From a phage: a stretch of 64,000 nucleotides of DNA. The notes beneath the pieces are model-generated. The model saw only the letters and a list, made by a program, of their open reading frames with translations. It searched no databases and was not told the origin of the DNA. Positions within the stretch are counted from its first letter, which is position 1. Each line of letters begins with the position of its first letter. Of the stretch, positions 7,605-50,977 are shown piece after piece. The stretch lies in the NCBI GenBank assembly GCA_025823825.1, contig GCA_025823825.1_4720.1. One strand, 5' to 3'. The position numbers and the translations under genes were made by a program.

Positions 7605-7993
7605 GATGTTGTACCTCGTTCAGCAATCAGGAGAGTCGTGGTTGTGCTTTTCACTAATCTATTAAAGTCTTGATATATCCGCCTGAGGGATGGTTTCAAA
7701 TCACAATAACGGCTGAAATAAACCTTCAAGTCATCTTTTGTCACAGTCTCCGTATTTATTTTCGTAGAAACACCGAGATCGATAAACTCTTTTCTTAATT
7801 GGGATAATTCATCAAGAAGTCGATGGTGGCTTAGATAAATAACAGATTTATCGGATAACAACTCGCCGGTTATCCGGCTCTGGCGTTCATCGAAATATTG
7901 GAGCCGCCATTCAATTCGCTTACGTAATTTATCAAGTAAATCAACAAAAGCGGTATAGCTGTTAACGGCTAGGTTAACTTGACTCGTTATCAT
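7595..7993 (-). CDS. hypothetical protein
   Basis: 132 aa ORF. Confidence 0.4.
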   Translation of the reverse strand: MITSQVNLAVNSYTAFVDLLDKLRKRIEWRLQYFDERQSRITGELLSDKSVIYLSHHRLLDELSQLRKEFIDLGVSTKINTETVTKDDLKVYFSRYCDLKPSLRRIYQDFNRLVKSTTTTLLIAERGTTSWN

Positions 7994-10558: not shown

Positions 10559-11440
10559 TCAGTAACAGTTATAATGGGTTCCAAGCCGCTCCGGTTTTCT
10601 CAGAAGACTATCTTTAAGCGGTACGACGTCGATATCAACGTTTTCTGAATAATAACCATTAGAACTACCATACCAACGAATAACAACACATCCTTTTGCT
10701 GTACGAATATGGTAAAATGTCCATCGCGTACGTTTGCAAAAGTCGTCATCCTCGTCTCTTTCCTCGGTTCTTTCTTCAGCGCTAAGTATCTTCTCACCAA
10801 TAATGTCGTTAAGATCGCCATCGATGTCTTCAAGGTACACTTTTTCACAGCAATCTTGCTTATGGCAGAATTCAACAACGTTCCCATCGCCCCGATAGAA
10901 AAGAAGGGCAATGCTGTATTGTAGCTGTTCGGCCGTTAAGTCTGTCGCGCAATACAAACTTTGATCTTCGGTTATCACCAAGACATTGTTGATTACGTGT
11001 CCGGCAAGCGCTCCGATCTTATTTACCGTGATAATCGGACGAACGGGTTCAGGTTGAACGATCGGAATACGAACACAACCAATTAAGGCCATCCGTCCTT
11101 TCTTTGGTCTAACCGCAAGGTAAGGTGATTTTCTTGGGTGGTTATGCAGACGTATTTCTAATTCGTCAAATTTAATCCCGTATATACCTAAGAAACGATC
11201 GAACAACCGATGAAACTCATCTGTTGCTTCTTTCAACGTTATGGTGTCTACCGTGAGTTTATGTCCCCTGAACACCCGGGTTATATCGATAACGTCGAGT
11301 GTTTTAAAATGTATTTCCGTAAGGGGGTGATTTGTATTTTCCAGGTATGTAATGGTTCTTTGAACCGCGATTTTAGGTGACGCACCTTTAAAACGTTTCA
11401 GGTATTTAACACGATAGCGTGTATGATCTGATGTTAACAT
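10559..11440 (-). CDS. hypothetical protein
   Basis: ORF-track N-terminus reads through the upstream hairpin; start set at ATG 11440 (MLTSDHTRY) preceded by GGAGAGGAG. Confidence 0.5.
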   Translation of the reverse strand: MLTSDHTRYRVKYLKRFKGASPKIAVQRTITYLENTNHPLTEIHFKTLDVIDITRVFRGHKLTVDTITLKEATDEFHRLFDRFLGIYGIKFDELEIRLHNHPRKSPYLAVRPKKGRMALIGCVRIPIVQPEPVRPIITVNKIGALAGHVINNVLVITEDQSLYCATDLTAEQLQYSIALLFYRGDGNVVEFCHKQDCCEKVYLEDIDGDLNDIIGEKILSAEERTEERDEDDDFCKRTRWTFYHIRTAKGCVVIRWYGSSNGYYSENVDIDVVPLKDSLLRKPERLGTHYNCY

Positions 11441-11507
11441 TTTAATCTCCTCTCCCGACTTCAGAGAATTCTTAAAATCCGTTAGTTTTGATAGATGAGG
11501 TAAGACG

Positions 11508-17808: not shown

Positions 17809-18071
17809 TATTGAATTCCTTTTGATAAGAATAACTGAATATCGGTAAACTGTTCTTCAGGAACATCGTCAGCGGCCGTTAGAACCTTAGGACCGTGTTC
17901 ATTGAGGTAAGCTTCCCGTAGACAATGATGACGTCGATTGGCTTCCTGGAACTCAGTGTCCGTCATGTAAACCAGCGTAAACTTCGAACGTTTATTCGGA
18001 TTATATCTCTTATTACGTTTCTTTGGTTTCTTCGCCATAATAGCCTCGTGAAGGTGGATGGATACACCCAT
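17808..18071 (-). CDS. hypothetical protein
   Basis: 87 aa ORF. Confidence 0.35.
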   Translation of the reverse strand: MGVSIHLHEAIMAKKPKKRNKRYNPNKRSKFTLVYMTDTEFQEANRRHHCLREAYLNEHGPKVLTAADDVPEEQFTDIQLFLSKGIQ

Positions 18072-18086
18072 CCACCTTCCTCCATG

Positions 18087-18608
18087 TTAAAGTGTGTTCA
18101 ATTCTTCAGGCGTACGTACAGTACGCGTGTTGGGATCAACCATTGCTGGCACGCCCGCTGGGCATTTACGGACATCAATCCGCATCTCCGGTTCGATCGG
18201 ACGAACGCGATACGTTTTGCCATCGTCGGTTAACACCGAAATGGTCAACGCCTGATTCAATTCACTAACGAAGTTCACCAAACGCTGTTGTCCACCCTTC
18301 GACCAGAAGTTAAGATCGGTTTCTCCATTGAAATAACTGATTCCATCAGCGGTTCCAATCGTGATTTTAACGATACCCGGATAGTCACGAAGAAGAGGTG
18401 CCTGATAACCTTCATCTTCCGTATCCAGTTTTACCCACGCGCCTCCCGTAGACAAACAGTTAACTTCCAAGGCGGTTGGTGCGCTGACTTCCGCCGATGA
18501 CCAGGTATACATCGTGCCTAGTTTAGCGTGTCCGGTTTCCAGCTCGCTGTAATCCCAAGCATGTGCTGATGCCGTAATAAATAAAGCCGCAAGAAACAAC
18601 TTTTTCAT
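18087..18608 (-). CDS. predicted secreted/periplasmic protein
   Basis: 173 aa; N-terminal MKKLFLAALFITASAHA looks like a Sec signal peptide. Confidence 0.55.
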   Translation of the reverse strand: MKKLFLAALFITASAHAWDYSELETGHAKLGTMYTWSSAEVSAPTALEVNCLSTGGAWVKLDTEDEGYQAPLLRDYPGIVKITIGTADGISYFNGETDLNFWSKGGQQRLVNFVSELNQALTISVLTDDGKTYRVRPIEPEMRIDVRKCPAGVPAMVDPNTRTVRTPEELNTL

Positions 18609-18663
18609 TCTTTTCGATTCCTATTAAAAGTGACCGATTTCTGTGGTCGAGATTGCTAATAAA

Positions 18664-19125
18664 TTAATTCCGGTTTTGTTTCCGTATTGCACGGTTACGT
18701 TTACGTTCTTGGTCTTTGACTGCACCAAGAAACTTCTTTAATTCCGACGGTTCGAGCGTACCCTCACGTACCACACCGTTTTGTTCGATATGGTACGACC
18801 AATAACCAACTTCAGCCGTTAAGGATAACGTTGTCGGTTGCTCATCAGGTAACGATCGGGGTGAGAAAATAAAGAGTAATTCAAAAGGCGTTTCTCGGCT
18901 GATGGTGGGACGGATACTCACGTCAAGCCCCTCCCATCGCTGAGGTTTAAATATTCCTCCAGCGGCGACGATTGTCTCCGAGCGCTGGTCTACAAGCTCG
19001 GCTAATTCACGATCGTCATTGAAATAAATATCGTGAAGGATATCCGTATCGATAAAAAACCCGCGATCCGAATCGTGACGAACAATGGAATTCTTCATTC
19101 TAACGCCTTTGTTGTTTGTTTTCAT
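18664..19125 (-). CDS. hypothetical protein
   Basis: 153 aa ORF. Confidence 0.4.
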   Translation of the reverse strand: MKTNNKGVRMKNSIVRHDSDRGFFIDTDILHDIYFNDDRELAELVDQRSETIVAAGGIFKPQRWEGLDVSIRPTISRETPFELLFIFSPRSLPDEQPTTLSLTAEVGYWSYHIEQNGVVREGTLEPSELKKFLGAVKDQERKRNRAIRKQNRN

Positions 19126-19174
19126 GTCCTATACGAACATGAAAAACCGTTAATTTTTACCATAGCCGCGTGCG

Positions 19175-19450
19175 TTAAAATTCCACACCGCGACCTGTCA
19201 TCGACGAAGGAACCGCGCGATAATAGAAGTAGATGTAATGGTCACGATGGCTAAAATAGTTTTTGCAAGCATAGAACTCTCCAGATCCAATGAATGATTT
19301 AATACGTGTAACTTGAGGGTGTCGTGCGATTAACGCCTGTATAACGATTTCCATTTGGTGTGCGCTCAAGCCTGGTCGAGCTGCAACATGATAATGAAGC
19401 TCCTTAAGAAATCGTTTCCAGGGGTCGTGGTGTGTCGATGATCGAGACAT
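19175..19450 (-). CDS. hypothetical protein
   Basis: 91 aa ORF with AAGGAG upstream of ATG 19450. Confidence 0.35.
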   Translation of the reverse strand: MSRSSTHHDPWKRFLKELHYHVAARPGLSAHQMEIVIQALIARHPQVTRIKSFIGSGEFYACKNYFSHRDHYIYFYYRAVPSSMTGRGVEF

Positions 19451-19482
19451 CTTTATCTCCTTAACGGGTGCTGGTAACGCAG

Positions 19483-19506
19483 CATAAACCCTCCCCGAAG
19501 GGAGGG
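19483..19506 (-). terminator. hairpin CCCTCC-CCGAAG-GGAGGG followed on minus strand by TTTATGCTG
   Basis: Inverted repeat seen directly, downstream of the 19517 stop. Confidence 0.55.
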
Positions 19507-19516
19507 CGGTTAACGT

Positions 19517-20074
19517 TCACTCCATCCATACTTCTTCGTCGTAATGATTTTCTATCGCATTACGCCAAAAACGTACGGTGTCCAAACTAATCGGTGCATA
19601 AAAATGCTGATCAACGCCTACATTAAGTCCGTTGGCTTTCGCTAACATACAGCGATGAATATGACCGAATAAATTAAAGTAGCCTGGGTTTCTTTCGCTG
19701 GGCTTATGGCATAGCCAGTAGGATTCGTCATTGCTAATCGGCAACACCAACGGATGTTCATAAACCGCAGCAAACCCCATACCGAGCAATTTATCACGCC
19801 ACGCTTCAAAGCTTAATCCTGTCGCTTTGTATGCGTCCTCGTCCCAATTCCCCAATACCAATTGAACCTGGATATCAGAACGAATGGCTTCCACGAACTC
19901 GAACTTACCCCAATCACCTAAATGCCACAACACACTGTTCTTTGGAAGCTTGTTGATGGCTTTCAGCATATGCTGGTTCATATCGGCGACGCTTGCGAAC
20001 GGACGGCGTGAATACGTCCACGTACGCTCGCTATCAAAATGGGTATCCGACATAAAGAAGATGGGTGGGGTCAT
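19517..20074 (-). CDS. calcineurin-like metallophosphoesterase (Ser/Thr phosphatase-like)
   Basis: 185 aa; FMSDTHF, GDWG, GNWD, GHIH motifs in canonical order. Confidence 0.8.
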   Translation of the reverse strand: MTPPIFFMSDTHFDSERTWTYSRRPFASVADMNQHMLKAINKLPKNSVLWHLGDWGKFEFVEAIRSDIQVQLVLGNWDEDAYKATGLSFEAWRDKLLGMGFAAVYEHPLVLPISNDESYWLCHKPSERNPGYFNLFGHIHRCMLAKANGLNVGVDQHFYAPISLDTVRFWRNAIENHYDEEVWME

Positions 20075-20553
20075 TGATTTAATTGCTCCAGAAATGCACG
20101 ACCTGATTTACTTGCTTTTAAATGCTGTTCTGCGGAAGTAAGCAGAAGATCGGTTGGTGTGAACGCAGCGCTACCTTTCCACTCTGTTTTCAGTTTACCC
20201 TCTTCGATACTGAACTGAATCAGTTGTTGGGTGCCGAAGTTAAGCGTGTTCGTCGCGGCGCTAAATACACCACCCATCATGCTGTAACCAAAGACTTTCA
20301 CGTTTTCCGTGTAGAAGTCATTGTCGATCAATTTGTTCTGGAGCTCGAGTTGGTCGGACGGTAGCAATCCCCCATCAAAGACGCTTAAAATACCAGCCAG
20401 GCGATACATACTCACCTTTCCTGAAACACCCACCACGTAATTGCCGTACAGGGTTTCTTCCAGTTTAGCAACAACGGTGCGATCGTCGGAGGTTTTCATC
20501 GAAACCTCAATACCATCACCAATTTCTGTTAACGTTAAATCAACGATGCTCAT
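20071..20553 (-). CDS. hypothetical protein
   Basis: 160 aa ORF, ATGA overlap with phosphatase. Confidence 0.45.
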   Translation of the reverse strand: MSIVDLTLTEIGDGIEVSMKTSDDRTVVAKLEETLYGNYVVGVSGKVSMYRLAGILSVFDGGLLPSDQLELQNKLIDNDFYTENVKVFGYSMMGGVFSAATNTLNFGTQQLIQFSIEEGKLKTEWKGSAAFTPTDLLLTSAEQHLKASKSGRAFLEQLNQ

Positions 20554-20575
20554 TCATTATTCTCCGCTTTCATGT

Positions 20576-21262
20576 TTAACACATGATTTCACCATGTTTC
20601 TTTTCGACATACGTATAAACATCATCCAAATAAGCAATGAGTTTATCACGATCCGCACAAAGCGATTTAATCGCCGCAATCTCTTTCATATAAAGCTGCT
20701 GACCTAACGCTGGATACGTAATCCAAGCGTAGCCGTCAGGCGCAAATTTAGAAATAAGATAATCGGCGGTTTCCTGTAATGCGAACTCTTTGCTCATCTG
20801 ACCGTAACGATGTTCGATTGCGCGGATACCAAAACGTTCGCTATCAAGACGACCCATATCCGCCAAACGAAGCACCTGAGAAGCAACCGAACTACGTGGA
20901 CCAGAGTACGAGGCACGATGTTCGGCAATAAGTACGCGTATCTCTTCGATGTCTTCCGGTGTGAAAATATGCTGCTCGTTACGAAGCAGGATAACCGACG
21001 CACGAATACCCCCGATAAGGTGGTGGTAGGTTCTGTTTTCATGGCAAGCGATATCATGCATAAAAGCAGCTGTTAATAGACGGCGGCGTTCGGTAGGTCT
21101 AATAATCCCGACCACATCAGCAAGTTCATTTGCCAGTTCAACAACAGCAAGCACATGTTCTTCTTGATGTGCAAGATCGTTCTTCCGAATATTTTCAATT
21201 ACTTCAGCGCGTGTTTCCTGAGATAAGAAATTTAAACAATCCAACGAATATAAAGATTTCAT
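20576..21262 (-). CDS. HD-domain phosphohydrolase
   Basis: 228 aa; H...HD signature (EEHVLAVVE...FMHDIACHE); AAAGAGG before ATG. Confidence 0.7.
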   Translation of the reverse strand: MKSLYSLDCLNFLSQETRAEVIENIRKNDLAHQEEHVLAVVELANELADVVGIIRPTERRRLLTAAFMHDIACHENRTYHHLIGGIRASVILLRNEQHIFTPEDIEEIRVLIAEHRASYSGPRSSVASQVLRLADMGRLDSERFGIRAIEHRYGQMSKEFALQETADYLISKFAPDGYAWITYPALGQQLYMKEIAAIKSLCADRDKLIAYLDDVYTYVEKKHGEIMC

Positions 21263-21303
21263 CGCACGTACCTCTTTGAATCTATTAATAAATTTTCTTT
21301 ACT

Positions 21304-21327
21304 CACGTAAGTAATATAGCCGTGAAA
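21304..21327 (-). promoter_or_regulatory. conserved promoter-like motif, copy 1 (minus strand TTTCACGGCTATATTACTTACGTG)
   Basis: One of 4 near-identical copies, all 50-70 nt upstream of minus-strand gene starts; core TATATTAC. Confidence 0.5.
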
Positions 21328-21399
21328 GGATTTGTGTTGGCCCGTTTCGATGCCCATCGTATTTTATGGATTGTCGAATGACGTCATTTTAAGGGACAT

Positions 21400-21440
21400 C
21401 CCCGGCCTCCTCCCCAGGAAAGGTGTGGGGAGGAGTTTTT
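21400..21440 (+). promoter_or_regulatory. hairpin CCTCCTCCCC...GGGGAGGAG plus TTTTTAT at the start of the plus-strand unit
   Basis: Same hairpin family as the terminators but here no plus-strand gene lies upstream. Confidence 0.4.
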
Positions 21441-21470
21441 ATCATACATTCTATTAAATCGAGCGCGATT

Positions 21471-23552
21471 ATGTTGGATAGAATCAATCGTCTAATGAAC
21501 CGAATAACGGTTAAAAATCAGAGTAACAATACCGTGCATATCGGGGGTATCGATGCCTGGCGTCTTTCAGATGACATTCAGCGAATATGGGGTACCTCCC
21601 GATTTATGAAACATATGTTTCGTAATTTCTCTTCTAGTGGACTCAGCCTCCACAACTTTTACCTCCCCGATTTCGTTTATATTCTCGAGACGATCATCGA
21701 AGCAAAGAATACCCGCAGTAACAAACGCATGCTGAAACACCTTATTGAGGTACTGCTACAGGAAACCTGGTTGCAAAATACCACAATCGAGCAACCTGCA
21801 ATCCTCGATAAAGCACGCATGAACAAAATGCTAACGCTCTCTTTGTTCGATTATCAAGATGAGTTTATCGACATCTATAACCGTAACGTACCTAAATACC
21901 GACTGAAAGGATACGTGTGTGCGATGGGTGCTGGTGCGGGTAAAACAATCACCGCACTGGCATTAAGCTCCGCAATGAACGTCGATGTATTTGTGGTCTG
22001 CTGTCCTAAGAACACCATGCGTTCAGCATGGCAATCCGATGTAAACAAAGCCATCGTTGACCCTGCAACAGAAACCGCGTTCTGGTCAGATACGATGCCA
22101 CCATCACAGCTGCAGAAAAGCGATAAGTACTATTTTCTGCATTATGAATCGATGGGTTTATTAAACGATGTAATGATCAAGCATAAACGCACAGCGAAGC
22201 GCGTGTTGATCGTGGTTGATGAAAGCCATAACTTCAACGACAAGAACAGTCAACGTTCCCAACGACTGGTTGATCTCGTACAGACGATGCGTCAGACCAT
22301 GAATGCGGATGTGCACGTCTTGTTTATGTCAGGTACACCTGTTAAACAAATGGGTTCTGAGATGATCCCATGTTTAGGTTGTATCGACCCGATGTTCCAA
22401 GGACAGGTGGTCGATAGCTTCAAAGCGATTTACGGTTTAACCAGCAGTCGCGCTAACGATATCCTCAGACATCGTCTTGGGTTCATGATGCATGTCGTAC
22501 CTAAAGAGGCTTACCGTAAAACCCGTCCGGAAGTTCAGGATGTTTACGTGAAGCTCCCTAACGGTAGCGATTATACCATCTCAAGTATCCGCGACGACAT
22601 GGCGATATTTGTACGCGATCGGGCGAAGTATTACAAGGATAACTGGGGACACTACAGAAAGATTTTTGATGACGCCTTGGACTACTATCGTAAGACTATT
22701 CGTACCGACGGAGAACGTAAAGAGCTATCTCGATACGAATCGATTGTTGCTCGTTTCCAGAAAGGTTACGACCCCGTCAGAGACAAAGAAGATGCGATGT
22801 TCTGCAACGCGTTTGAAAAACGTTCCATCATGCCGGTTCTTCCTTCTGATTTAAGGATTGCTTTCAAAGACGCTAAGAGTGTCATCAAGTACGTTGGGTT
22901 GAAAATTCAGGGTGAGGCGTTGGCCCGTGTTCTCGGTGCAGCCCGCATTCGGTGTCATGTCGATATGGTGGAGTACATCGACTTCGAAGGGTATATCAAC
23001 AACGCTGAAGCCAAGGTGTTGATCTTCACGTCGTACGTTCAGGTGGTTGAGCGTGTCGACAACATGCTTCGTGATGCGGGTTTCTTACCGGAACCCATTT
23101 ACGGGAAGACCAACAAAAACATCAACCAAATACTTGCTCGTTTACGCGACGATCCCGACAGCGGCCCCGCTATCGCAACATTTGATAGCTTAGCTGAAGG
23201 GGTTCCGATGTTGATGTGTAACGTGGGTCTCTTCTTGAACAACCCATGGCGTTCATCCGATGAAATCCAAGCCATCAGCCGTCTCGATCGTGTAGGGCAA
23301 ACGCAACCGGTTCGGATTTATCGTTTCATGTTAGATACGGGAAGCGAGGGTAACGTTTCTACACGTAGCCACGAAATCATGGAGTTAAGTCGGCAGCTTG
23401 TTGAAGAAATCACGGGTGTCAAATACGTGGTGAACAAGCAAGACGATGTTAACTTGCAAGAAACGTTGGCGATGGAAGGATACGATCAATACGTTACCGT
23501 AAACACCACGGAATACGATATTAAACCACGACCTGCGTTCTTGGAATGGTGA
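21471..23552 (+). CDS. SNF2/Rad54-family helicase-like ATPase
   Basis: LFDYQ, GAGAGKT (Walker A), VVDESHN (DExH), MSGTP, QAISRLDRVGQ; start at first ATG rather than GTG 21423 inside hairpin. Confidence 0.75.
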   Translation: MLDRINRLMNRITVKNQSNNTVHIGGIDAWRLSDDIQRIWGTSRFMKHMFRNFSSSGLSLHNFYLPDFVYILETIIEAKNTRSNKRMLKHLIEVLLQETWLQNTTIEQPAILDKARMNKMLTLSLFDYQDEFIDIYNRNVPKYRLKGYVCAMGAGAGKTITALALSSAMNVDVFVVCCPKNTMRSAWQSDVNKAIVDPATETAFWSDTMPPSQLQKSDKYYFLHYESMGLLNDVMIKHKRTAKRVLIVVDESHNFNDKNSQRSQRLVDLVQTMRQTMNADVHVLFMSGTPVKQMGSEMIPCLGCIDPMFQGQVVDSFKAIYGLTSSRANDILRHRLGFMMHVVPKEAYRKTRPEVQDVYVKLPNGSDYTISSIRDDMAIFVRDRAKYYKDNWGHYRKIFDDALDYYRKTIRTDGERKELSRYESIVARFQKGYDPVRDKEDAMFCNAFEKRSIMPVLPSDLRIAFKDAKSVIKYVGLKIQGEALARVLGAARIRCHVDMVEYIDFEGYINNAEAKVLIFTSYVQVVERVDNMLRDAGFLPEPIYGKTNKNINQILARLRDDPDSGPAIATFDSLAEGVPMLMCNVGLFLNNPWRSSDEIQAISRLDRVGQTQPVRIYRFMLDTGSEGNVSTRSHEIMELSRQLVEEITGVKYVVNKQDDVNLQETLAMEGYDQYVTVNTTEYDIKPRPAFLEW

Positions 23553-23559
23553 TTAAGAA

Positions 23560-23589
23560 GCCCTGCCGTCAAGCAGGGCTTTATGCTGC
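23560..23589 (+). terminator. hairpin GCCCTGC-CGTCAA-GCAGGGC followed by TTTATGCTGCG
   Basis: Inverted repeat seen directly, just after the SNF2 stop. Confidence 0.5.
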
Positions 23590-23647
23590 GTTTGTTGCAA
23601 GATCGTATGACGTATATGCGTTGTACTTATTTAAAAAGGCAGAATAA

Positions 23648-25102
23648 ATGAAACTCAAACAAAGCTGGAAAGACGAACTTCTCGCGTTAGTAAACAACAA
23701 AAACAGTTTACAGCTGACATTAGACGACGTAAAATTTGAACTAACTGAACCGGTAAGCGAAGTGCCCGGAACAGTCGTCGTTACGATCAAACCGAACGAT
23801 GATAGCCGTTACTTTAACGAGCAGTCTCTGACCTACATCCGTCGAGACATCGCTAAAAACTTCACCGGGATCCCGTTACGTGTTATCGTTAAAAATGATA
23901 CCGTCGTAAGGGATATCATCAATACGATTGCTGAACGTTACGGATTGGTATTTGACACAACCGTTGACTTCCTCGAATCAGAGCTGAATAAGCAGATTAC
24001 GTTCGAAGACACCGGTATTAAAGACATTACGGTTCCGGTTGCAAACACGTCTTATGTTTGGGCTGGTAATCTTCAGTTCAATATCGCTAACGATACGTTA
24101 AGCTTGATTACGATCATCAAGGAAACCAATCTTACGAATCTGGTTTATCTGGATGGCGTTGAAGCTGACACAACCGGATCGTTATTATTAGCAACGGCCT
24201 CGATTATCGACGATAACGGAAATACCGAAACAACTGAAGGTGTCCTTGATGCCGAGTACTTCCAGAATGTCCTGAATGTCATGGTTCGTTATGGTGATAT
24301 TACCAGCGAACAAATGCAACAAGCAATGCAGACAATTAACCAAAACGAAGACGTTCGTGAAGTGGAGGTTAAGTCATACGGCGACTCTGAGCTGTTGGTA
24401 ACCACAAAGAAAGATTGGGCTATCGGTAACCTTAAGGGCGCTATGGCAGTTGTTCGCAACGCTCAACCGAAACCAATTCAGTACATTCTCAAAACGAATG
24501 GCGGCTCCGTTACACTAGCATTGGACGGTTGGACAAATATTTCCATCGATTGGGGTGATGGGAATAAAGCAACATTACCAGGCGGACAAACTCGCGGATT
24601 CCACGAATACAGTGACGGTACAGAACGTACGATTGTAGCTACTGGTGTCCTCTCAAACCCTGAAGCACCAACACAGACACAAACCATCAGCGGCGATAAC
24701 ATCACTGAAATCGTTGACTGGAACAACGGATTACCGCAGGCTGTACAATTAACGGGATTAACCAGTTTGATTAAGGTTCCCGATTATATCCCGTCATACT
24801 GGACAACGTTGGAAAGTTTGTTCGAGAGCTGCTCATCGATAAACGACGTAAACATCACGAAATGGAATACCGGTAACGTCACATCAATGAAGAATTTGTT
24901 CTTTGGCTGTAACGTCTTCAACCAACCGATCATCGTATGGGATGTTACCCATGTAACAAATATCGACAATATGTTCTCGGGATGTTCGGCGTTCAACCAG
25001 GATCTAAGGATGTGGTCATTCCCAGCGGATACTTCCCGCAACAACTACGATAACGGTGCTACAGCCTGGCGGTCAGAGTATCGTCCAAGCTTCGATTTGT
25101 AA
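23648..25102 (+). CDS. DUF285/BspA-like repeat protein
   Basis: 484 aa; C-terminal repeats of F.GC..FNQ.I..WDV..VT...MF; family assignment from memory. Confidence 0.6.
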   Translation: MKLKQSWKDELLALVNNKNSLQLTLDDVKFELTEPVSEVPGTVVVTIKPNDDSRYFNEQSLTYIRRDIAKNFTGIPLRVIVKNDTVVRDIINTIAERYGLVFDTTVDFLESELNKQITFEDTGIKDITVPVANTSYVWAGNLQFNIANDTLSLITIIKETNLTNLVYLDGVEADTTGSLLLATASIIDDNGNTETTEGVLDAEYFQNVLNVMVRYGDITSEQMQQAMQTINQNEDVREVEVKSYGDSELLVTTKKDWAIGNLKGAMAVVRNAQPKPIQYILKTNGGSVTLALDGWTNISIDWGDGNKATLPGGQTRGFHEYSDGTERTIVATGVLSNPEAPTQTQTISGDNITEIVDWNNGLPQAVQLTGLTSLIKVPDYIPSYWTTLESLFESCSSINDVNITKWNTGNVTSMKNLFFGCNVFNQPIIVWDVTHVTNIDNMFSGCSAFNQDLRMWSFPADTSRNNYDNGATAWRSEYRPSFDL

Positions 25103-25117
25103 AAAAAAAAAAAAAAA
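25101..25117. repeat. A17 homopolymer tract overlapping the stop codon of the DUF285 gene
   Basis: Seventeen consecutive A counted on plus strand. Confidence 0.9.
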
Positions 25118-25128
25118 TAGTTAGCATA

Positions 25129-25167
25129 TCTTCCTCCCTACCCATAACGGGCGGGGAGGAAGGTTTT
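25129..25167 (+). terminator. hairpin CTTCCTCCC...GGGAGGAAGG followed by TTTTATGGCG
   Basis: Inverted repeat and T-run seen directly between convergent genes. Confidence 0.55.
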
Positions 25168-25180
25168 ATGGCGTTATAGC

Positions 25181-25519
25181 TTAGAACCAGAGTTCTTTCA
25201 TGAGGTAGGCTTCCATATCGTAGATAAGCCACGCATCGGGGATTTCTAAAGGATCGTCTTCGGTTAAGGTCAGCATGTGCAGGGCGAACGCACGCTTGAT
25301 ATCTTCCAACAGCTTATCATCACCGTAATCCTCGGGTAGTTTACGGTCAACCAGCTGGGTTTGTTTATAGACGTCGCGGAACGCTTCAGGGCTGTGTTTG
25401 TCCATCGGGAATTGTTCAGCAGCCTGAACCATCGTCAACGTCCAGCTTACAACATTGTAACGCTCACCGTTAATTTCACTGAACTGATCATCGATTAAAC
25501 AGATTTGTTGTACGTTCAT
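25181..25519 (-). CDS. hypothetical protein
   Basis: 112 aa ORF. Confidence 0.4.
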   Translation of the reverse strand: MNVQQICLIDDQFSEINGERYNVVSWTLTMVQAAEQFPMDKHSPEAFRDVYKQTQLVDRKLPEDYGDDKLLEDIKRAFALHMLTLTEDDPLEIPDAWLIYDMEAYLMKELWF

Positions 25520-26409
25520 TCATTTTCTCCATTCTTATCTTGGTCGCAATCACACTCTTCGACGTCTTTCTTACTTAAACGTAAGACACCTAGTGCAGCA
25601 TGCTTGAGTTCTTGCAAAGCGCTTTTCAGCTGACCTTCTTCATCGAAATCAAAATACTTCTCGTTGTAGCTTAATGCCGGAATCATATTTACGAGAGGTT
25701 CGATGGCGGGCATCAGCATTTCAATGACGACCTTAGGATCGACAAAACGTTCAAACCCTTCAGGAAGTTTGCTCGCTACAACCTTATCGTTCTTGATGTA
25801 GAATTTGTTCTTGAATAGATCGTCAAGAATAGCATTCTCTTCATCCGTACGTTTTGCGTGAGGACGATCGATCATCTGCACAAACACACCACTCAACGCT
25901 TCAGGCAAAGTCGGATTTTCGCGAAGATAAGTTCCGGCCGGAATTTCAATGTCGATCTTCGTCCACTCAACAACCTGATGGTCTCGCGTATAGATGACGT
26001 CAACTTCCCATGCCAGACCATCAGCGCTTTCTACGGTGTAACGTGTTTTCGCCTGGCCTTCAGGAGCCATACGTTCGATCGCATCAAACATCTCGACTGG
26101 GATTTCGACTTCGCTTTCCGTTGCATCGCCTGGACCGCGATACACCTTCGTGGTCATGATGTATTTCGGTTCTTCGTTATCGATCTGTATAGCTCGTGCT
26201 CGTACTTGACCTTTCACACCACCAACGGCCGTGTTATCAAACAACCATTGATGTTGCACCATATGTTCGATTTTTGATGCGACTTGACGAAGACGTTCAA
26301 CACCGTCTTCGGCCAGTTTACCAAAGAAGACCAGCTCACGTTCCTGCTGTGTCTCACCACTTAACATCATTAAATTGGCGATTTGTTTCACGCCTCTTAC
26401 TTTTGACAT
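25516..26409 (-). CDS. hypothetical protein
   Basis: 297 aa ORF. Confidence 0.5.
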   Translation of the reverse strand: MSKVRGVKQIANLMMLSGETQQERELVFFGKLAEDGVERLRQVASKIEHMVQHQWLFDNTAVGGVKGQVRARAIQIDNEEPKYIMTTKVYRGPGDATESEVEIPVEMFDAIERMAPEGQAKTRYTVESADGLAWEVDVIYTRDHQVVEWTKIDIEIPAGTYLRENPTLPEALSGVFVQMIDRPHAKRTDEENAILDDLFKNKFYIKNDKVVASKLPEGFERFVDPKVVIEMLMPAIEPLVNMIPALSYNEKYFDFDEEGQLKSALQELKHAALGVLRLSKKDVEECDCDQDKNGENE

Positions 26410-26477
26410 ACATGCTCCGGTTATAAGGGCCTGCTTCGAGGCCCTTCATTGATTTTTGATTCCACCAAACGCTATCG

Positions 26478-28052
26478 TTACAATTCAAAATCTTCATCGA
26501 TAACACGCTGGGTAAGCACTTTGTCGCTGAAGAACTCCACCTTGCGCTGATGGTATTTACGGTGCGCTTCGATAGAAGTACATACCAGATACCAGAACGT
26601 TGGCGTCATTCCTTCAAACTTTCCTTTCAGCTGACGCAGTCGTCCCAACACCTGAATGTTACCGGTTCGTGACCCCATCGCTAATGTCATGAACGTCATC
26701 ACCAAGTCAGGAAGGTCGATACCTGTACCTGCCGATTTCACCGTTGTAACGCTAATATCGTTATCCAGCAAGACCATGAAGTCTTCTTCAGCAGTATAAG
26801 GACCGATTTCTAACTCAGGGATACGTTCACTGAGATAATGCGACAACGACTTACACATATCGACGGTTGCACAATACACCAGCATCTTCATACCTTCCTG
26901 ATACTGGTTCATGAAACCCTTGATAATAACGGTATAGATGAAGTTAAAATACGCGAGTTTGAGTTGCTTGTTCTTCATGATAGACTGTTCGAATATCGTG
27001 TGCGAATAAGCTCCACCAAACCCTTTGTATCTGACTTTATCTGTACTGCGTAGTCGGTACGTTACCGCATTTACCGCAATGTATTTCTTGTATTCGCCTT
27101 TCGCATAACGGGCTTCTTTCGGATACATCAAATACAGCATCTGTTCGATAAACGGATCATCGGATACCGCTGTTGCCGACAGATAAATGATTTCCGGAAT
27201 ATTGGCGTAACACTTGACCTTAAACAAGAAATGCAATGCTTCGTGACACTCGTCATGAATCAGCAAACCTATGCCGGTCTTTTCCCAAAACTCAGCGGGA
27301 TGAAAGGCATATGGCGCAACGCAGTTATTCTTCTCGTAGTCCGCAATATAACGTTGGAACATGTTCAAGGAGAACAATGCGATTTTGAAGTCGAGTTCAC
27401 CTTGTTCAACCAAGGTTTGAAACTCCAACATACTGTAACGAGGAATGTCGGGATGCGGTGGATCCTCCTTAGCGTTCCCGCGTATCTCGATAACGTCCCC
27501 TGGTTCCATCCCGAAGAAGTTCAGCAGTGAGCTTCGCCAACCTGGCATGTATCTCGGCGACAGAATGATACCCGTCCGTACACCGCGTCGGAAGGTGATC
27601 TCCTGCGACATGGCCGTTTTTCCTGACCCCGTTTGAGCGGTGTTTAGGCTCATTCTGAAGGGGGTATCCTTACCCCCGTCCATGTACTCCAACCATTCTT
27701 GCTGATCTTGACGCCATGGAAACTTCCATTTCTTTACGAACTCCACTTCTTTACCTGGTACCGGATCGTGATAGACGATTTCCAACCACTCTTTTCGTAT
27801 CCCTCGGGAAAAGATAAAATCCAAAAACGATTTCAACTGTTCACGGAGTAAGTATACCTCGCTATAATCGCTTCTTGCCGCGGCATACGTGTTTATGGTA
27901 TCGGTAACCATTCTCCGTGTACGAGGGTCACGCCGTTTCCTCAGATGCAAACAACGGTCTCGAAGGTAATGGCCGATAAGATGGGCAAATCGAAGTCCGT
28001 ATCCGCTCAGCCTCATGCCGTGCGAGAAGACGTCGATACGAGCTAACTTCAT
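26478..28052 (-). CDS. superfamily 2 DExH-box helicase
   Basis: 524 aa; AQTGSGKT, HDECHEA, SAT, QVLGRLRQ motifs. Confidence 0.75.
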   Translation of the reverse strand: MKLARIDVFSHGMRLSGYGLRFAHLIGHYLRDRCLHLRKRRDPRTRRMVTDTINTYAAARSDYSEVYLLREQLKSFLDFIFSRGIRKEWLEIVYHDPVPGKEVEFVKKWKFPWRQDQQEWLEYMDGGKDTPFRMSLNTAQTGSGKTAMSQEITFRRGVRTGIILSPRYMPGWRSSLLNFFGMEPGDVIEIRGNAKEDPPHPDIPRYSMLEFQTLVEQGELDFKIALFSLNMFQRYIADYEKNNCVAPYAFHPAEFWEKTGIGLLIHDECHEALHFLFKVKCYANIPEIIYLSATAVSDDPFIEQMLYLMYPKEARYAKGEYKKYIAVNAVTYRLRSTDKVRYKGFGGAYSHTIFEQSIMKNKQLKLAYFNFIYTVIIKGFMNQYQEGMKMLVYCATVDMCKSLSHYLSERIPELEIGPYTAEEDFMVLLDNDISVTTVKSAGTGIDLPDLVMTFMTLAMGSRTGNIQVLGRLRQLKGKFEGMTPTFWYLVCTSIEAHRKYHQRKVEFFSDKVLTQRVIDEDFEL

Positions 28053-30055
28053 AACGTGATTACATCCTCCGGTTTAGGTTCTTTACGCGGTAACAGCATG
28101 TAGTCGATCGGATGATCCGGCTTCATGGTTGGGATATAACTGTTCGGGTTTTGGAACGCATCCAGCTGCTCTTGGTGAGCGAACTTCATACTCAAGGAGC
28201 GCATGTTCATGTTCTTCTTGAAGGTACTGAAGTATCGTGTTGTTCCCTGTTTCGGCATGCGATAATCTTTCGTGTGCGGTGAACGAATCATGCTGGCGTA
28301 GAGAATAACATCGAGATGCGAAAGGTTCATTCGCAGACGCTGGGCACACAGACGATGCCAATAGTACAGCACGTTTGCAACTTCTTCCGGTGTTGCTTCG
28401 TCTTCCGAAAGGAATCCGGCACTGAAAGAACCTTTCCCGAATTTGAATTCACGTTCGATTTCTTTTGCGTATTCCATCATGTTTTTGTGGATTAACGGCA
28501 TCTGGAATAACGTACGTGAATTGTCCCAATGTTTCAAGTCGAAAATCACAATCCCGTCAGACGTCACTTCCCAGCTATGGCGTTTAAGATAACGGATAAA
28601 CGCTTTACTCGGTACAACAGGACGTCCACAGAAATCGAAATTGACTTTGAGCTTACGATAGCTTTCATCTTTCCTGTCGTAAATCTCCATATCGCAAAGC
28701 GTCATGTTAAACAAGCGTTGCGGTATCAGCGAACTGATTTCTTCCGCTTCGGCTACGTCGTACAACATGTTCGCAAGACCTAACTTCATCTTAATCAGCA
28801 CGTGTTTACCTTTCAGCTCACGTGCGAGTTTGATGTCGTTCATGTTCTGGCTATAGCGAAGGATATGTTGATATTCCGGTGGGATTGGTGCTGTGGATAC
28901 CGTTGACGAACCATCGTGGTGTTTGGTAGAAAGAATGTTCTGCGTCACCTGTTGCGAACAGGTACGCGCTGCGCCATCGCCGACATTATCAGTCAATGCG
29001 AAGTTATGACTTAATTCACCGTAACACGTTGTACATACCCCAGCAGGATCGGGATGATGACAATAGTTAACGGAGCGCATGCGTACCGTCGTGCCGATCA
29101 ATTCTTTCATGTGTGGTTGTATCGCTACCAACGAACCGTCATCACGAATAATGAATCGACCATGGAAGCCACGCAGGTCGGTCTCGTCGCGGATTGGCAT
29201 CGGGATGGTCTCTTTACTACCACAATCACCAGGATGGAGTCGTTGTACAACCGCTGTCGCTATCTGAAGTTCACGACCGAAATATTCAGACTTTTTAATC
29301 TGCTCTTTGTTGAACAGCAACGATTTTGCCGCAGAACGACTTTCTTTCAAGCTGTCGGGAAGAGAGATCAAACCGGCTGCGTATGACCGCATTACTGGAT
29401 CACGGAATATCTCGGAGTTAATATCGGTCAAGAATCCACGCATCCCAATACACTGCAGCACCTGTCCAATCGAAACGTGTTCGGTTCTTACCGCACGTGC
29501 GATAGGGTTTGCATGTAACGTTTTATCGGTGCTCAGTACCTTTGTCAGTTTCTTGTATGCGCTTTCGATACCTTCACGGGTGGGTTCCGCTTCGGCGATG
29601 ATTTTCTTAACTTCGGGATGTACGGTAATCTGATAAAAATCGTCCGCGCAAATCGTTGTTACGTATTCCTCCAACGCATACGTAAAGAAGTTATATACGT
29701 TGTTGAACATATCGAACAGTGCTTTCCAGAGAACCTCACGATTCTCTTGTGGGTAAGCATACATGCATTGACGATACGCTGCGCTTTGCAACGCAACCGA
29801 CGAACCAGCAGTAAACTTGCGTTTATCGACCAGGTTCTCTTTTGTCAATGGTGTCTCAGGATACATGCGATGCACAGACCAGTGCATGTAACTAAAGAAA
29901 ATGCGTCGCGCACGCAATTCATGAACGCCATCGTCCATCTCGATATATACACGGTCATTAGGCTGTGCCCACTCGAACACCTCATCAACCGGCCAATGCA
30001 TAAGCTCGCGTGCCCTCACACGACGTTTCGTGGTGGTCGTCTGTGTTATAGTCAT
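28049..30055 (-). CDS. RNA polymerase beta'-like subunit, C-terminal portion
   Basis: 668 aa; VLQCIGMRGFL...YAAGL...GDCGS resembles bacterial beta' region F/G (QLAGMRGLM...FREGL...DDCGT); compared from memory. Confidence 0.6.
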   Translation of the reverse strand: MTITQTTTTKRRVRARELMHWPVDEVFEWAQPNDRVYIEMDDGVHELRARRIFFSYMHWSVHRMYPETPLTKENLVDKRKFTAGSSVALQSAAYRQCMYAYPQENREVLWKALFDMFNNVYNFFTYALEEYVTTICADDFYQITVHPEVKKIIAEAEPTREGIESAYKKLTKVLSTDKTLHANPIARAVRTEHVSIGQVLQCIGMRGFLTDINSEIFRDPVMRSYAAGLISLPDSLKESRSAAKSLLFNKEQIKKSEYFGRELQIATAVVQRLHPGDCGSKETIPMPIRDETDLRGFHGRFIIRDDGSLVAIQPHMKELIGTTVRMRSVNYCHHPDPAGVCTTCYGELSHNFALTDNVGDGAARTCSQQVTQNILSTKHHDGSSTVSTAPIPPEYQHILRYSQNMNDIKLARELKGKHVLIKMKLGLANMLYDVAEAEEISSLIPQRLFNMTLCDMEIYDRKDESYRKLKVNFDFCGRPVVPSKAFIRYLKRHSWEVTSDGIVIFDLKHWDNSRTLFQMPLIHKNMMEYAKEIEREFKFGKGSFSAGFLSEDEATPEEVANVLYYWHRLCAQRLRMNLSHLDVILYASMIRSPHTKDYRMPKQGTTRYFSTFKKNMNMRSLSMKFAHQEQLDAFQNPNSYIPTMKPDHPIDYMLLPRKEPKPEDVITL

Positions 30056-30200
30056 TATTGCTTTCCGATTTAAATGGTTTTATCATACGGTTTACCAAAT
30101 CCGTTGGACTTTACTATCGTTGTGATAGCATCGGGAATCCCTTCCCTTAGGTTATGTAGGTGTTAATATATCTCCACTGCTGACCTTTATGTCGGCAGCA

Positions 30201-30686
30201 TTATCCAGCTTTCTGTTGTAAAGCGTATGGATCCATAGCGTCTGACATATCCGCAAAAACGGTGAGAATAAACCCCTTTATCTGTCTCACCTCGGTTACA
30301 CGAAGCCCTTTATCATTGCGATATACGTTTTCTTCACCGACTAACTTTGGTCGAATAACATAAACTCCATCAACAAGCGGGAATGTCGGATACGGATAAA
30401 TACCAATACGAATGATGTTTGGGTGATCGCCTAGAAGGTCACGTCCAAACTTATCGACTCGACCATAAATCGCCCCATCCGCACCTTCCACTTCAATGAG
30501 ATCATTTCGAATATCCTGAAATAGTTGCTCTAACGTGTCGGCGGGATACGCATATGCGACGCCTAACGCCGGATCCTCGACGGTTTTGACACTGAATCCG
30601 TTAAGCCAAACAATCCGTTCATCCGCCCATGTTTCTTCATATACCGTTAATCCATCGCCGTATATGTTGGCGTGTGCTATCTCCAT
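30201..30686 (-). CDS. hypothetical protein
   Basis: 161 aa ORF. Confidence 0.45.
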   Translation of the reverse strand: MEIAHANIYGDGLTVYEETWADERIVWLNGFSVKTVEDPALGVAYAYPADTLEQLFQDIRNDLIEVEGADGAIYGRVDKFGRDLLGDHPNIIRIGIYPYPTFPLVDGVYVIRPKLVGEENVYRNDKGLRVTEVRQIKGFILTVFADMSDAMDPYALQQKAG

Positions 30687-30843
30687 AATCTCATTTCCTC
30701 TTATACGTTAGGATAGATGACATGTTGGATATACGTTGCCTTTGCATATATTGCTTTATTTCCGTCAGAAATAACGGAAAATAAAAACAACGACATAGTT
30801 CCCTCCCACCTCCACATGGGAGAGGGAGGGCTATTCGTGTTTA

Positions 30844-31206
30844 TTACTCTATGCTGTCTTCTTCAGCACAATCCTCTTCTGAACCGTCGAACGTTTTCTG
30901 CACTGCAGTGGTATCCCAGTTGGCAGCGTAATCAGCCATCGCTTCGCGCAGTGCTTCTTCACCAGCATCACCGGCCAGGTCAAGCACAACCAAACCTTGC
31001 GCGACGTTTTGAGCGACAGTATCAATAACGGTCGCATCTTCTTCAAAACTACGTACCGGTTCAATGGTGCCTACATCAACAGCATAGTTCGTGGTCGCTG
31101 TAAGCACGGCGACTTGTAGCGCGTCGCTATCTTCATCATGCAATGCTGCTTCAATACCGATTGGACGGGCCAGTTCTTGCAGTGTTAATTTGCGAATTAA
31201 GTTCAT
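30844..31206 (-). CDS. hypothetical acidic protein, small paralog family
   Basis: 120 aa; VAQGLVVLDLAGDAGEEALREAM resembles TARGLMLLELFGEQGRTELQSEL of 31697-32107. Confidence 0.4.
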   Translation of the reverse strand: MNLIRKLTLQELARPIGIEAALHDEDSDALQVAVLTATTNYAVDVGTIEPVRSFEEDATVIDTVAQNVAQGLVVLDLAGDAGEEALREAMADYAANWDTTAVQKTFDGSEEDCAEEDSIE

Positions 31207-31227
31207 TATATTTTCCTCAGGTGAATG

Positions 31228-31578
31228 TTAGCAATCGTTTAAAACTTTTTCGATACGATGGTTGACGAATTCATTGAACGACTCTTCGGCTTGTTCGATA
31301 ATTTCATCAACGTCGATATCTAATTGTTGGGGTTGGATAACATGCTCTTTCATGGTTTCTAGCCAGTATTCGGCTTTAACCATAACGTTAGCGACATGTT
31401 CGACCTGACTGCGTATGTCGACGATCTGGCAGTCAGGATTGTTAATATCGATGATGTGTCCGTGGTGGTTGATAAAACCTAGCTTATTTGATGCCCTTAC
31501 CGCATCGCGGGTAAGTTCTTGCAAGATTAAATTATTGACGTAGTTCACTGCTACGGAACGATTTTCGTTATCACTCAT
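31228..31578 (-). CDS. hypothetical protein
   Basis: Start set at ATG 31578 (MSDNENRS) with AAAGAGG upstream. Confidence 0.4.
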   Translation of the reverse strand: MSDNENRSVAVNYVNNLILQELTRDAVRASNKLGFINHHGHIIDINNPDCQIVDIRSQVEHVANVMVKAEYWLETMKEHVIQPQQLDIDVDEIIEQAEESFNEFVNHRIEKVLNDC

Positions 31579-31647
31579 ACCAGGGATCCTCTTTAAGTCT
31601 TCACATTCTAGTGTTAAGCAGTTAAAATAAACCGTTCCTTTAATCAG

Positions 31648-31687
31648 CATAAACATCCTCCTCCCACCACATGGGCAGGAGGAGGCG
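31648..31687 (-). terminator. hairpin CCTCCTCCC...GGAGGAGG followed on minus strand by TGTTTATGCTG
   Basis: Inverted repeat seen directly. Confidence 0.5.
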
Positions 31688-31696
31688 TAATATGCA

Positions 31697-32107
31697 TCAG
31701 AAAGGAGGACGATCTTTAAATTCTAACAACGTGTCTTCGAAGCAAGCGATGAGTTCAGACTGCAATTCGGTACGGCCTTGTTCACCGAAGAGTTCCAGCA
31801 ACATTAACCCCCGAGCGGTCTTCGTAGCAACCTCTTCGCAGATGCGGAGATCGTGAACTTCATCATCGTTGACATCTTTACGCAACTGTGCCGCAATGGG
31901 CTTAAGATTGCCGTTTTCATCGTGTTCGTCACGAAATGCATCATAAGCCGCATCGATGTTCGCGATCCGTGTCAATCCTTCAGAATCCCGCCAGTCTCGA
32001 TATAATCCAAGCAGACGGTTATGATTCTTCGTTTTGACGTTCGGTGCTGGAAGGTTGCGCAACAGATGTGGTGTAATCATTGCTATCACGCTATCCGAAT
32101 GATCCAT
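31697..32107 (-). CDS. hypothetical acidic protein, small paralog family
   Basis: 136 aa ORF. Confidence 0.4.
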   Translation of the reverse strand: MDHSDSVIAMITPHLLRNLPAPNVKTKNHNRLLGLYRDWRDSEGLTRIANIDAAYDAFRDEHDENGNLKPIAAQLRKDVNDDEVHDLRICEEVATKTARGLMLLELFGEQGRTELQSELIACFEDTLLEFKDRPPF

Positions 32108-36018: not shown

Positions 36019-36073
36019 ATTGTATTTCCTTTTCTTTACGTCAACGGTCCCCCTACAACAGGGGACCTATGGA

Positions 36074-39248: not shown

Positions 39249-39300
39249 AACAACCTCTTTTCGCGGTTCCCTGTTAAAACGTCTTCTGTGACGTCTACCA

Positions 39301-39324
39301 CAAAGGTAATATAAGCGTGAATAA
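39301..39324 (-). promoter_or_regulatory. conserved promoter-like motif, copy 2 (minus strand TTATTCACGCTTATATTACCTTTG)
   Basis: TATATTAC core about 55 nt upstream of ATG 39248. Confidence 0.45.
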
Positions 39325-39452
39325 TTTTGGATTCCGGCTGAGTTATCGCTCAGCATGCAAGGCATCCCGCCGAAGCGAGACACCTTGCACTAACGGAAAA
39401 TATTCGCGTTACCTTCTGAATCGAAGACTCAGAATGCGATGCTAAAGCATTA

Positions 39453-43907: not shown

Positions 43908-44026
43908 TCCGTTCTCCTCAAGCTTTTTCATTTCATAGAGTGGTGGAAATTCGTAGAAAGTTACAAAAATAAAAAAGAATGGGCAGCCCCTCCCCACCCG
44001 AAGGTAGGGAGAGACCGCAAATATAC

Positions 44027-44577: not shown

Positions 44578-44601
44578 CACCTAAGTAATATAGCCGTGAA
44601 A
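44578..44601 (-). promoter_or_regulatory. conserved promoter-like motif, copy 3 (minus strand TTTCACGGCTATATTACTTAGGTG)
   Basis: About 65 nt upstream of ATG 44512. Confidence 0.5.
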
Positions 44602-44610
44602 AATGTTGGA

Positions 44611-45408
44611 TTAACGTGTTCTCCTATCACGATGCGTATACGACTGAAGACCGATGTCCATATGCGGTAACGTCAGCGTCTGCCAGATCTGTCGTGCATA
44701 GCGATCGAGCGTATGATCGTCAGTAACACAATCGACGGGTTCGATGAGGTGAGTCGTATACTGGCTTTTCTCAGAGAAAGGTTCGATGTTAGCTGTATCT
44801 CCTAATCCGCTTTTCACCGTGAAGACAAGACGTGTGACTATCATCGCCTTATGTTGCTGTTCGTTATAACGAAGGCTGCGGTATACGGCATAGCTTCCTC
44901 CTTTTAGGCTTCGGGTATAACGAAGGTCGGAGGTCGTCTCGGAAATCTGATACAGCATCCAGTCCAACGTATCGCGCCAGTACGCATCATCCACATCAGG
45001 AACTGTAATACCATATCGCGTAGGCAGCAGTTCTAAAAGCAATTTATAAAGTCCGCGACGCAAGCCATGCTCTTCTGTTTCCGATAAACCGTTTCCAACA
45101 TAACGTGAAATACGCGTACGTAAATACGTACGGATGAACATATTCGCCATCAGTGTTTTCACTCTGCTACTTGTATCCTCAAAGCGATCAACGCTGAAAC
45201 TCGTTTCAATCAGCCGTCCATTAAAATACAATGCGGCAACATACATCGCATTACTGCTATCACGTTCAATGTTTAAACGACCGCAGATATTGGCTGCGTC
45301 GTTCATGGTAAATTCTAATTTATCGTGTTCGATACGATAGATAATATCCTCTTGGGTTGCTAGGCTCGCAATACGACGATAGCCCGGAGAAGTACGTTTT
45401 ACACTCAT
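44611..45408 (-). CDS. hypothetical protein
   Basis: Start likely ATG 45408 (MSVKRT, GAGGA upstream) or 45447. Confidence 0.5.
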   Translation of the reverse strand: MSVKRTSPGYRRIASLATQEDIIYRIEHDKLEFTMNDAANICGRLNIERDSSNAMYVAALYFNGRLIETSFSVDRFEDTSSRVKTLMANMFIRTYLRTRISRYVGNGLSETEEHGLRRGLYKLLLELLPTRYGITVPDVDDAYWRDTLDWMLYQISETTSDLRYTRSLKGGSYAVYRSLRYNEQQHKAMIVTRLVFTVKSGLGDTANIEPFSEKSQYTTHLIEPVDCVTDDHTLDRYARQIWQTLTLPHMDIGLQSYTHRDRRTR

Positions 45409-50788: not shown

Positions 50789-50812
50789 CACCTAGGTAAT
50801 ATAACCCTGAAA
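50789..50812 (-). promoter_or_regulatory. conserved promoter-like motif, copy 4 (minus strand TTTCAGGGTTATATTACCTAGGTG)
   Basis: About 70 nt upstream of ATG 50723. Confidence 0.5.
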
Positions 50813-50977
50813 TTTTTTTCAATATTGGTGTAACCACATTGAACGATATAAACCCCTAGGCGAACGCTGCCGAGAAGCAACATTCTTTCTACATATAATC
50901 AGGATATGTCTGTAAACTTTTACTTCTCTTATTGAGAGTAATGTCATATCCGTTTACTACCTTCTTACGGAGTTCGT

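Follow-up and report, generated by a model that had tools for sequence, protein, structure and literature searches.

Four copies of a conserved AT-rich motif, all on the minus strand of a 64,000-nucleotide stretch of phage DNA (the window), very probably represent early promoters that are read by the virion RNA polymerase of a Goslar-like phage of the Chimalliviridae, as judged from sequence comparison. This promoter class is already well characterized in phiKZ and its relatives, and the window sites are not a new kind of element. By analogy with these relatives, we infer the use of the virion polymerase, the promoter function in this phage and the exact start positions. The preliminary description of the window had proposed a phage RNA polymerase, and not host sigma-70, as the factor that recognizes the motif; the match to phiKZ-type promoters and the lack of a sigma-70 match support this proposal, with homology pointing to the virion enzyme.

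Whole-window alignment revealed 96% identity to Escherichia phage vB_EcoM_Goslar over 61.5 kb, collinear with positions 123.6 to 186.2 kb of the Goslar genome, and each of the aligned blocks was 92 to 98% identical. In a megablast search with positions 20000 to 28000 against a phage collection, Goslar was the sole match (92% identity). By these alignments, the source of the window is a Goslar-like, nucleus-forming jumbo phage of Escherichia coli, a member of the Chimalliviridae. Several RNA polymerase subunit genes and the gene for ChmC (Goslar gp176) are located near the promoters in the window. Proteins of the Goslar lineage and phiKZ are only ~23 to 25% identical, and a tblastn search for chimallins of intermediate divergence found none, the next chimallins being ~23% identical. 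Scanning IMG/VR with chimallin yielded three contigs only, with 97 to 99% amino acid identity and identical upstream regions. Since the four promoter-bearing intergenic regions of the window were 99 to 100% identical over their full length, motif included, to those of Goslar and two IMG/VR relatives, this comparison cannot show selective conservation of the motif.

The alignments also revealed several local features of the window. The 140 nt upstream of chimallin (50724-50863), which contain promoter and 5' leader, showed no difference (100% identity) when the window was compared with Goslar and two IMG/VR contigs, and the 4.9-kb loci around this leader differed from the window by 3 to 6%; as judged from these sequences, the leader as a whole may be under stronger constraint than the neighboring genes. 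Three blocks of 0.4 to 0.9 kb (1864-2713, 7594-7989 and 10559-11450) could not be aligned to Goslar, with surroundings that were 92 to 96% identical, and presumably represent gene replacements or indels among small hypothetical genes. Rfam at gathering thresholds and a tRNA scan of the window gave no matches. On the minus strand, the region of the gene for the non-virion RNA polymerase (nvRNAP) beta' subunit (window 46400-47600) contained two stretches that matched group I introns (RF00028) with scores under the gathering cutoff of 50, one at 46738-47104 (46.9 bits, E 2e-10) and another at 47177-47513 (32 bits, E 5e-6). The second match lies within a 368-nt block (47127-47494) that is absent from Goslar, and the HNH endonuclease gene gp186 of Goslar (168217-169281) is absent from the window. 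Therefore, intron and homing endonuclease content differs between these two 96%-identical phages.

The exact 8-mer TATATTAC occurred four times in the window, in all cases on the minus strand, inside the motif and in an intergenic region. A degenerate 18-mer covering all copies (TTCASGSYTATATTACYT) gave 4 matches versus 0.68 expected, a count reached by none of 100 shuffles, and searching with the 24-mer at up to 3 mismatches recovered three copies (21304-21327, 44578-44601 and 50789-50812), with 0 expected. All four minus-strand copies of the preliminary description are thus present in the 64 kb, and the four genes named there as lying downstream (HD protein, 528-aa protein, membrane protein and 631-aa protein) were confirmed. 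Some details needed revision. Copy 2, which had been placed at 39301-39324, is offset by 2 nt and spans 39299-39322, with its core at 39306-39313. The term near-identical was too strong for this copy, which agrees with the quoted 24-mer at 18 of 24 positions (ATTCACGCTTATATTACCTTTGTG); copy 4 has 3 mismatches. The distance to the gene starts, given as 50 to 70 nt, was measured as 42 to 66 nt from the last base of the motif to the ATG (42, 51, 66 and 66 nt for copies 1 to 4), or as 49 to 73 nt from the end of the core. AGAGG-type ribosome-binding sites precede three of the four downstream ATG codons.

The copies had further been said to share no -35 element. This holds for a -35 element of the sigma-70 type, but the upstream sequence does contain conserved elements: TTTCA is present around -23 to -19, and farther out, around -37 to -27, there is either AATCCAAC or an A-tract. 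The full motif of the window reads (TTAATCCAACATT)TTTCACGGCTATATTACTTAGGTG. Similarity among the copies was confined to ~45 nt, ending within ~40 nt on either side, and flanking sequences and genes were unrelated; the copies are therefore not remnants of a duplication. The coordinates of the predicted promoters and associated features are listed in Table 1.

Table 1. Predicted early promoters, their first downstream genes and adjacent hairpins in the window.
Feature	Position	Strand	Details
Predicted early promoter upstream of HD-domain gene	21304..21342	-	Core 21311-21318; predicted start G 21304; divergent intergenic region
Predicted early promoter between ChmC and PHIKZ068 homologues	39299..39337	-	Core 39306-39313; predicted start G 39299
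Predicted early promoter upstream of Goslar gp182 homologue	44578..44616	-	Core 44585-44592; predicted start G 44578
Predicted early promoter upstream of chimallin	50789..50827 (~-38 to +1)	-	Core 50796-50803; A-tract; predicted start G 50789
HD-domain phosphohydrolase, 228 aa	20576..21262	-	Pfam HD, E 5.6e-8; Goslar gp159 homologue; first gene after promoter 21304
PHIKZ068 homologue, 528 aa	37662..39248	-	Identified with phmmer; first gene after promoter 39299
Small protein, 161 aa, one N-terminal hydrophobic helix	44027..44512	-	Goslar gp182 homologue (translation, annotation)
Chimallin (nuclear shell protein ChmA), 631 aa	48828..50723	-	PF25677, E 2e-25; Goslar gp246 homologue
Hairpin, 16 bp, UUCG loop, without T-tract	39355..39390	-	Between ChmC stop codon and promoter 39299
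Intrinsic-terminator-like hairpin, 16 bp, UUCG loop, T-rich tail	43983..44018	-	Directly 3' of gp182 homologue; z -5.8

The preliminary description had likened the motif to phiKZ-type early promoters on account of a similar AT-rich core, and the published phiKZ core is indeed exactly TATATTAC. This core was tabulated by Lewis et al. (PMC7058600), and 28 to 32 early promoters are reported in the literature for phiKZ. Scanning the phiKZ genome, we found the context TTT.A...TATATTAC...TG in 25 of 42 TATATTAC occurrences, all of them on the plus strand and upstream of genes, a number not far from the published one. A matrix derived from only 10 phiKZ sites placed the four window sites at ranks 1 to 4 of 127,916 positions, with promoter 50789 at rank 1 and promoter 44578 at rank 2. 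When the core was masked, the chimallin site (50789) still ranked first on its flanks alone, followed by the sites with cores at 44592 (rank 5), 39313 (rank 556) and 21318 (rank 2529). With the sites aligned on the core, T at -1 was present at 12 of 12 Goslar and 25 of 25 phiKZ sites, and G at +1 at 12 of 12 and 22 of 25, respectively; TTT.A at -23 to -19 was common to both phages.

The sites also occupy corresponding places in the two genomes. In phiKZ, a copy of the motif precedes gp54 (chimallin) by 73 nt, and Wicke et al. (PMC8244752) state that the early motif is present at the primary PHIKZ054 start site; in the window, a motif is likewise located upstream of chimallin. Another phiKZ TATATTAC copy, at 57984, lies between gp67 (ChmC) and gp68, the same junction at which promoter 39299 is found in the window. 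Upstream of chimallin, the motif was also detected in PhiPA3 (TATATCAC), Erwinia phage RAY and Klebsiella phage Eowyn, and an A-tract precedes the chimallin motif in PhiPA3, RAY, phiKZ and the window. Likeness to phiKZ thus comprises an identical 8-nt core, TTT.A, T at -1, G at +1, intergenic co-oriented sites and the same gene junctions. In contrast, the bases between TTT.A and the core are CACGGC or CAGGGT in the window phage and AAACAG or GAGATC in phiKZ, and the spacer at -6 to -3 differs as well. Unlike phiKZ, Goslar has the core TACATTAC at 4 of its 12 sites, and its 12 sites compare with ~25 to 32 in phiKZ. The window phage also differs from phiKZ in its host, E. coli.

The 237-kb Goslar genome, assembled from six pieces, was scanned with a position matrix. 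The 8-mer TATATTAC occurred 10 times in Goslar, exclusively on the minus strand, and 8 of these occurrences had the motif context. The matrix added four sites with the core variant TACATTAC, resulting in 12 sites, all on the minus strand. These sites scored 46 to 57 (promoter 44578, at 57.0, being the best of the window), while the next best match scored 12.9, which is chance level. According to the RefSeq annotation, 11 of the 12 sites are intergenic and the twelfth lies inside a 62-aa hypothetical open reading frame (ORF), although only ~8% of the genome is noncoding. All are co-oriented with a downstream start codon, at ~25 to 205 nt from the predicted start. An equal occurrence inside coding regions, which the preliminary description had named as an argument against promoters, was thus not seen, with 4 of 4 window sites and 11 of 12 Goslar sites being intergenic. 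The number of Goslar sites is smaller than the 28 to 32 reported for phiKZ, which suggests that some early promoters are perhaps too degenerate for detection or that early transcription is organized differently.

Two additional degenerate copies that had been suspected in the window did not hold up against the 12-site matrix. Near 30160, the score was 12.9, compared to 46 to 57 for the true sites and 13.5 for the best match in shuffled windows, and near 19160 nothing was found (best score -25). The weak site at 30151-30158 (minus strand) consists of TACATAAC followed by CTAAGGG, is the same in Goslar and lies upstream of the gene for the nvRNAP beta subunit (28049-30055). A comparable weak site with the core TACATTAC and a score of 12.0 is present at Goslar 187639. 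Each of these two may be a promoter in degenerate form or a meaningless match.

Upstream of TTT.A, the sites fall into two groups. A run of 6 to 8 A at about -37 to -27 was present at 4 of 12 Goslar sites (43266, 172978, 201944 and 226695) and 8 of 25 phiKZ sites, and the second subclass has a AATCCAAC-like element in Goslar and a TTCAAAC-like element in phiKZ. Both in the Goslar-like phage and in phiKZ, chimallin is preceded by a promoter with the A-tract; gp68 has an A-tract promoter in phiKZ but not in the window. That the same two subclasses are common to Goslar-like phages and phiKZ, despite protein identities of ~23 to 25%, is suggested by these sequences but seems rather doubtful to us. 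If functional, the division could determine how strong the promoters are or when they act (immediate-early versus delayed-early); alternatively, it could stem from two modes in which the virion RNA polymerase recognizes promoters.

Early promoters of other phages with a virion polymerase, whether predicted or mapped, are built in a similar way. Injected virion RNA polymerase uses an AT-rich early element (PMC7598289; PMC10914365; PMC11512511; PMC8244752), and in phiKZ-like phages such a motif is located ~10 bp upstream of mapped early start sites (PMC11512511; PMC7598289). The early consensus of 201phi2-1, TTAWTAVAA_HYWTTTRARR_BTATATTACDWHDGTG (PMC7058600), matches the window motif TTAATCCAACATTTTTCACGGCTATATTACTTAGGTG nearly element for element. 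Early promoters of OBP and N1M2 (TTTYARRYAKATATTATYWWADTG; PMC7058600) share TTTYARR...ATATTAT...GTG, with the core ending in T instead of the C found in the window, and the EL early promoter TACATTAT resembles the Goslar variant TACATTAC (PMC7058600; PMC11512511). All four phages infect other hosts and belong to other genera, and individual degenerate positions differ. A full-text literature search for TATATTAC alone returned unrelated primer sequences only.

Bacillus phage AR9 was informative with respect to the start position. Its 41 mapped early start sites follow the pattern AAATATATATTAT-(6N)-G (PMC5312081), and it thus resembles the window motif in having a TATATTA core, 6 bases and an initiating G, used by an injected virion RNA polymerase with no new protein synthesis (PMC5312081). 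It differs in having a genome that contains uracil and a core with a final T, before which AAATA takes the place of TTTCA...GGC. If the 6-base spacing of AR9 applies, +1 would therefore fall on the last G of the window 24-mer. This assignment combines the AR9 rule (6 bases, then G) with the location of the motif ~10 bp upstream of the start site in the literature.

Downstream of promoter 50789, chimallin is the first gene and is followed by the gene for the nvRNAP beta' subunit. The first gene after promoter 39299 encodes a full-length homologue of PHIKZ068, which is the sigma-like subunit that gives the phiKZ nvRNAP its promoter specificity; in phmmer comparisons with PDB chains 7ogp_B and 9rjs_B, it matched with E 7e-28 to 9e-28, query residues 23 to 518 aligning to chain residues 20 to 517. 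For this gene, the 528-aa ATG start is preferred because of its AAGAGG ribosome-binding site and because residue 23 aligns to PHIKZ068 residue 20. A mechanical longest-ORF call had yielded a 573-aa GTG-initiated ORF that would enclose copy 2 of the motif; this start was rejected since the extension would cross a very stable hairpin. Two further nvRNAP subunit genes in the window, the gp165 and gp171 homologues, have no motif site directly upstream. The same puzzle of nvRNAP subunit genes without the motif has been reported for 201phi2-1 (PMC11512511).

Long GC-rich hairpins were found at the ends of genes. A 76-nt stretch containing the 39355-39390 hairpin and a second small hairpin had a predicted folding energy of -39.3 kcal/mol (z -5.8), and 0 of 200 shuffles were as stable; the hairpin is a probable transcript boundary or terminator ahead of promoter 39299. 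The gp182 homologue is probably a single-gene early unit, because the terminator-like hairpin adjoins the end of the gene. As further observations, the 39355-39390 hairpin is unannotated in Goslar, and a third long GC-rich hairpin is present at a gene end on the minus strand (31657-31685).

The same sites might in principle be host sigma-70 promoters, with TATATT as the -10 hexamer and early transcription carried out by E. coli RNA polymerase. Like a sigma-70 -10 element, the motif has an AT-rich hexamer centered near -10, and TATATT shares 5 of 6 bases with TATAAT, among them A at position 2 and T at position 6; an intergenic position upstream of genes would also suit such promoters. However, no two-hexamer match (with a -35 element at 16 to 18 nt) overlapped any of the four sites in our scan, and the bases before the hexamer (GGC, GCT, GGC and GGT) do not form a TGn extended -10. 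Other conserved positions, i.e., the C after TATATTA, TTTCA just 3 nt upstream of the hexamer and T-G 6 to 7 nt downstream, do not fit a sigma-70 promoter and instead match the virion polymerase promoters of phiKZ, 201phi2-1 and AR9. We therefore consider transcription from these sites by the host enzyme to be most improbable. It is also very unlikely that the motifs are middle or late promoters of the nvRNAP. Autoregulation would be conceivable, given that nvRNAP genes lie downstream of two sites, and a secondary start site of PHIKZ054 belongs to the middle class (PMC8244752). Yet the late consensus of phiKZ is T(-3)ATG(+1) (PMC7598289), compared to CGTG, TGTG, GGTG and GGTG at the window sites, and the weak AT-rich or TACT motif near -22 to -24 that characterizes the phiKZ middle class (PMC7598289; PMC8244752) is absent from them. 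The window sites carry the early-class core instead, and phiKZ sites bearing the motif are classified as early.

A role other than that of a promoter, either as a repeated binding site of a phage DNA- or RNA-binding protein or as an RNA processing signal, would be compatible with the location of sites 39299 and 44578 between co-directional genes, where they could be transcribed through, and the evidence for the window phage itself consists of sequence only. We nevertheless attach very little probability to it: the motif is strictly orientation specific, nonpalindromic and located 42 to 66 nt before start codons. Two of its copies occupy divergent intergenic regions, in which transcription has to be initiated, and in phiKZ, 201phi2-1 and AR9, relatives or analogues of the window phage, the same motif precedes mapped primary 5' ends by ~10 nt. 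Chance matches or remnants of recent segmental duplications, for which only the small copy number speaks, can practically be dismissed, as no shuffle reached the observed count, the flanking genes are unrelated, and the motif recurs 12 times in Goslar and ~25 times in phiKZ.

Independently of the motif sites, sigma-70-like two-hexamer matches were rarer in the window than in dinucleotide-preserving shuffles, with 18 matches versus 24.5 (standard deviation [SD], 4.8) at 18000-32000 and 12 versus 24.2 (SD, 5.2) at 36000-52000. A possible reason for this deficit is that a phage equipped with polymerases of its own avoids promoters of the host type.

If the four motifs are early promoters of the virion polymerase, the following sequence of events would be expected. 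A multisubunit virion RNA polymerase would be packaged in the capsid and injected together with the DNA. In Goslar, the virion RNA polymerase subunits gp78, gp196, gp205, gp207 and gp210 were all found in virions by mass spectrometry (bioRxiv 10.64898/2026.04.21.720040); gp78, gp196, gp205 and gp207 are annotated as subunits of an RNA polymerase, and the window contains none of the virion polymerase genes. Once injected, the enzyme would bind a bipartite, orientation-specific element extending from about -38 to +1, in which TTT.A (about -23 to -19) is followed by the core TATATTAC (-14 to -7), with a AATCCAAC-like element or an A-tract farther upstream. For virion polymerases of this phage family, no sigma homologue is known (PMC13282480). 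The predicted start is the invariant G in T(-1)G(+1)A, 7 nt past the core, so that transcription would begin at 21304, 39299, 44578 and 50789. From promoter 50789, chimallin and the nvRNAP beta' subunit would be expressed, the same arrangement as gp54-gp55 in phiKZ. Promoter 39299 would serve the gp68-like, sigma-like nvRNAP subunit and perhaps two genes after it, and promoter 44578 would serve one small membrane protein, followed by the strong terminator hairpin. Promoter 21304 would drive the HD hydrolase gene, which heads a long minus-strand gene run that is perhaps included in the same unit.

Our literature searches for transcriptome, 5'-end or timing data of Goslar-like phages returned nothing relevant, and no published promoter map of the Goslar lineage was found. 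The result is a sequence-level map of likely early transcription units in this lineage, which serves as an E. coli model for nucleus-forming phages. The map predicts that chimallin, the beta' and sigma-like subunits of the nvRNAP, a small membrane protein and an HD hydrolase are transcribed directly by the virion polymerase. It may be used for annotation, for engineering of early-expressed cassettes and as a source of templates for studying promoter recognition without a known sigma factor. The layout of TTT.A, TATATTAC, 6 bases and G has been kept between phages whose proteins are down to ~23% identical.
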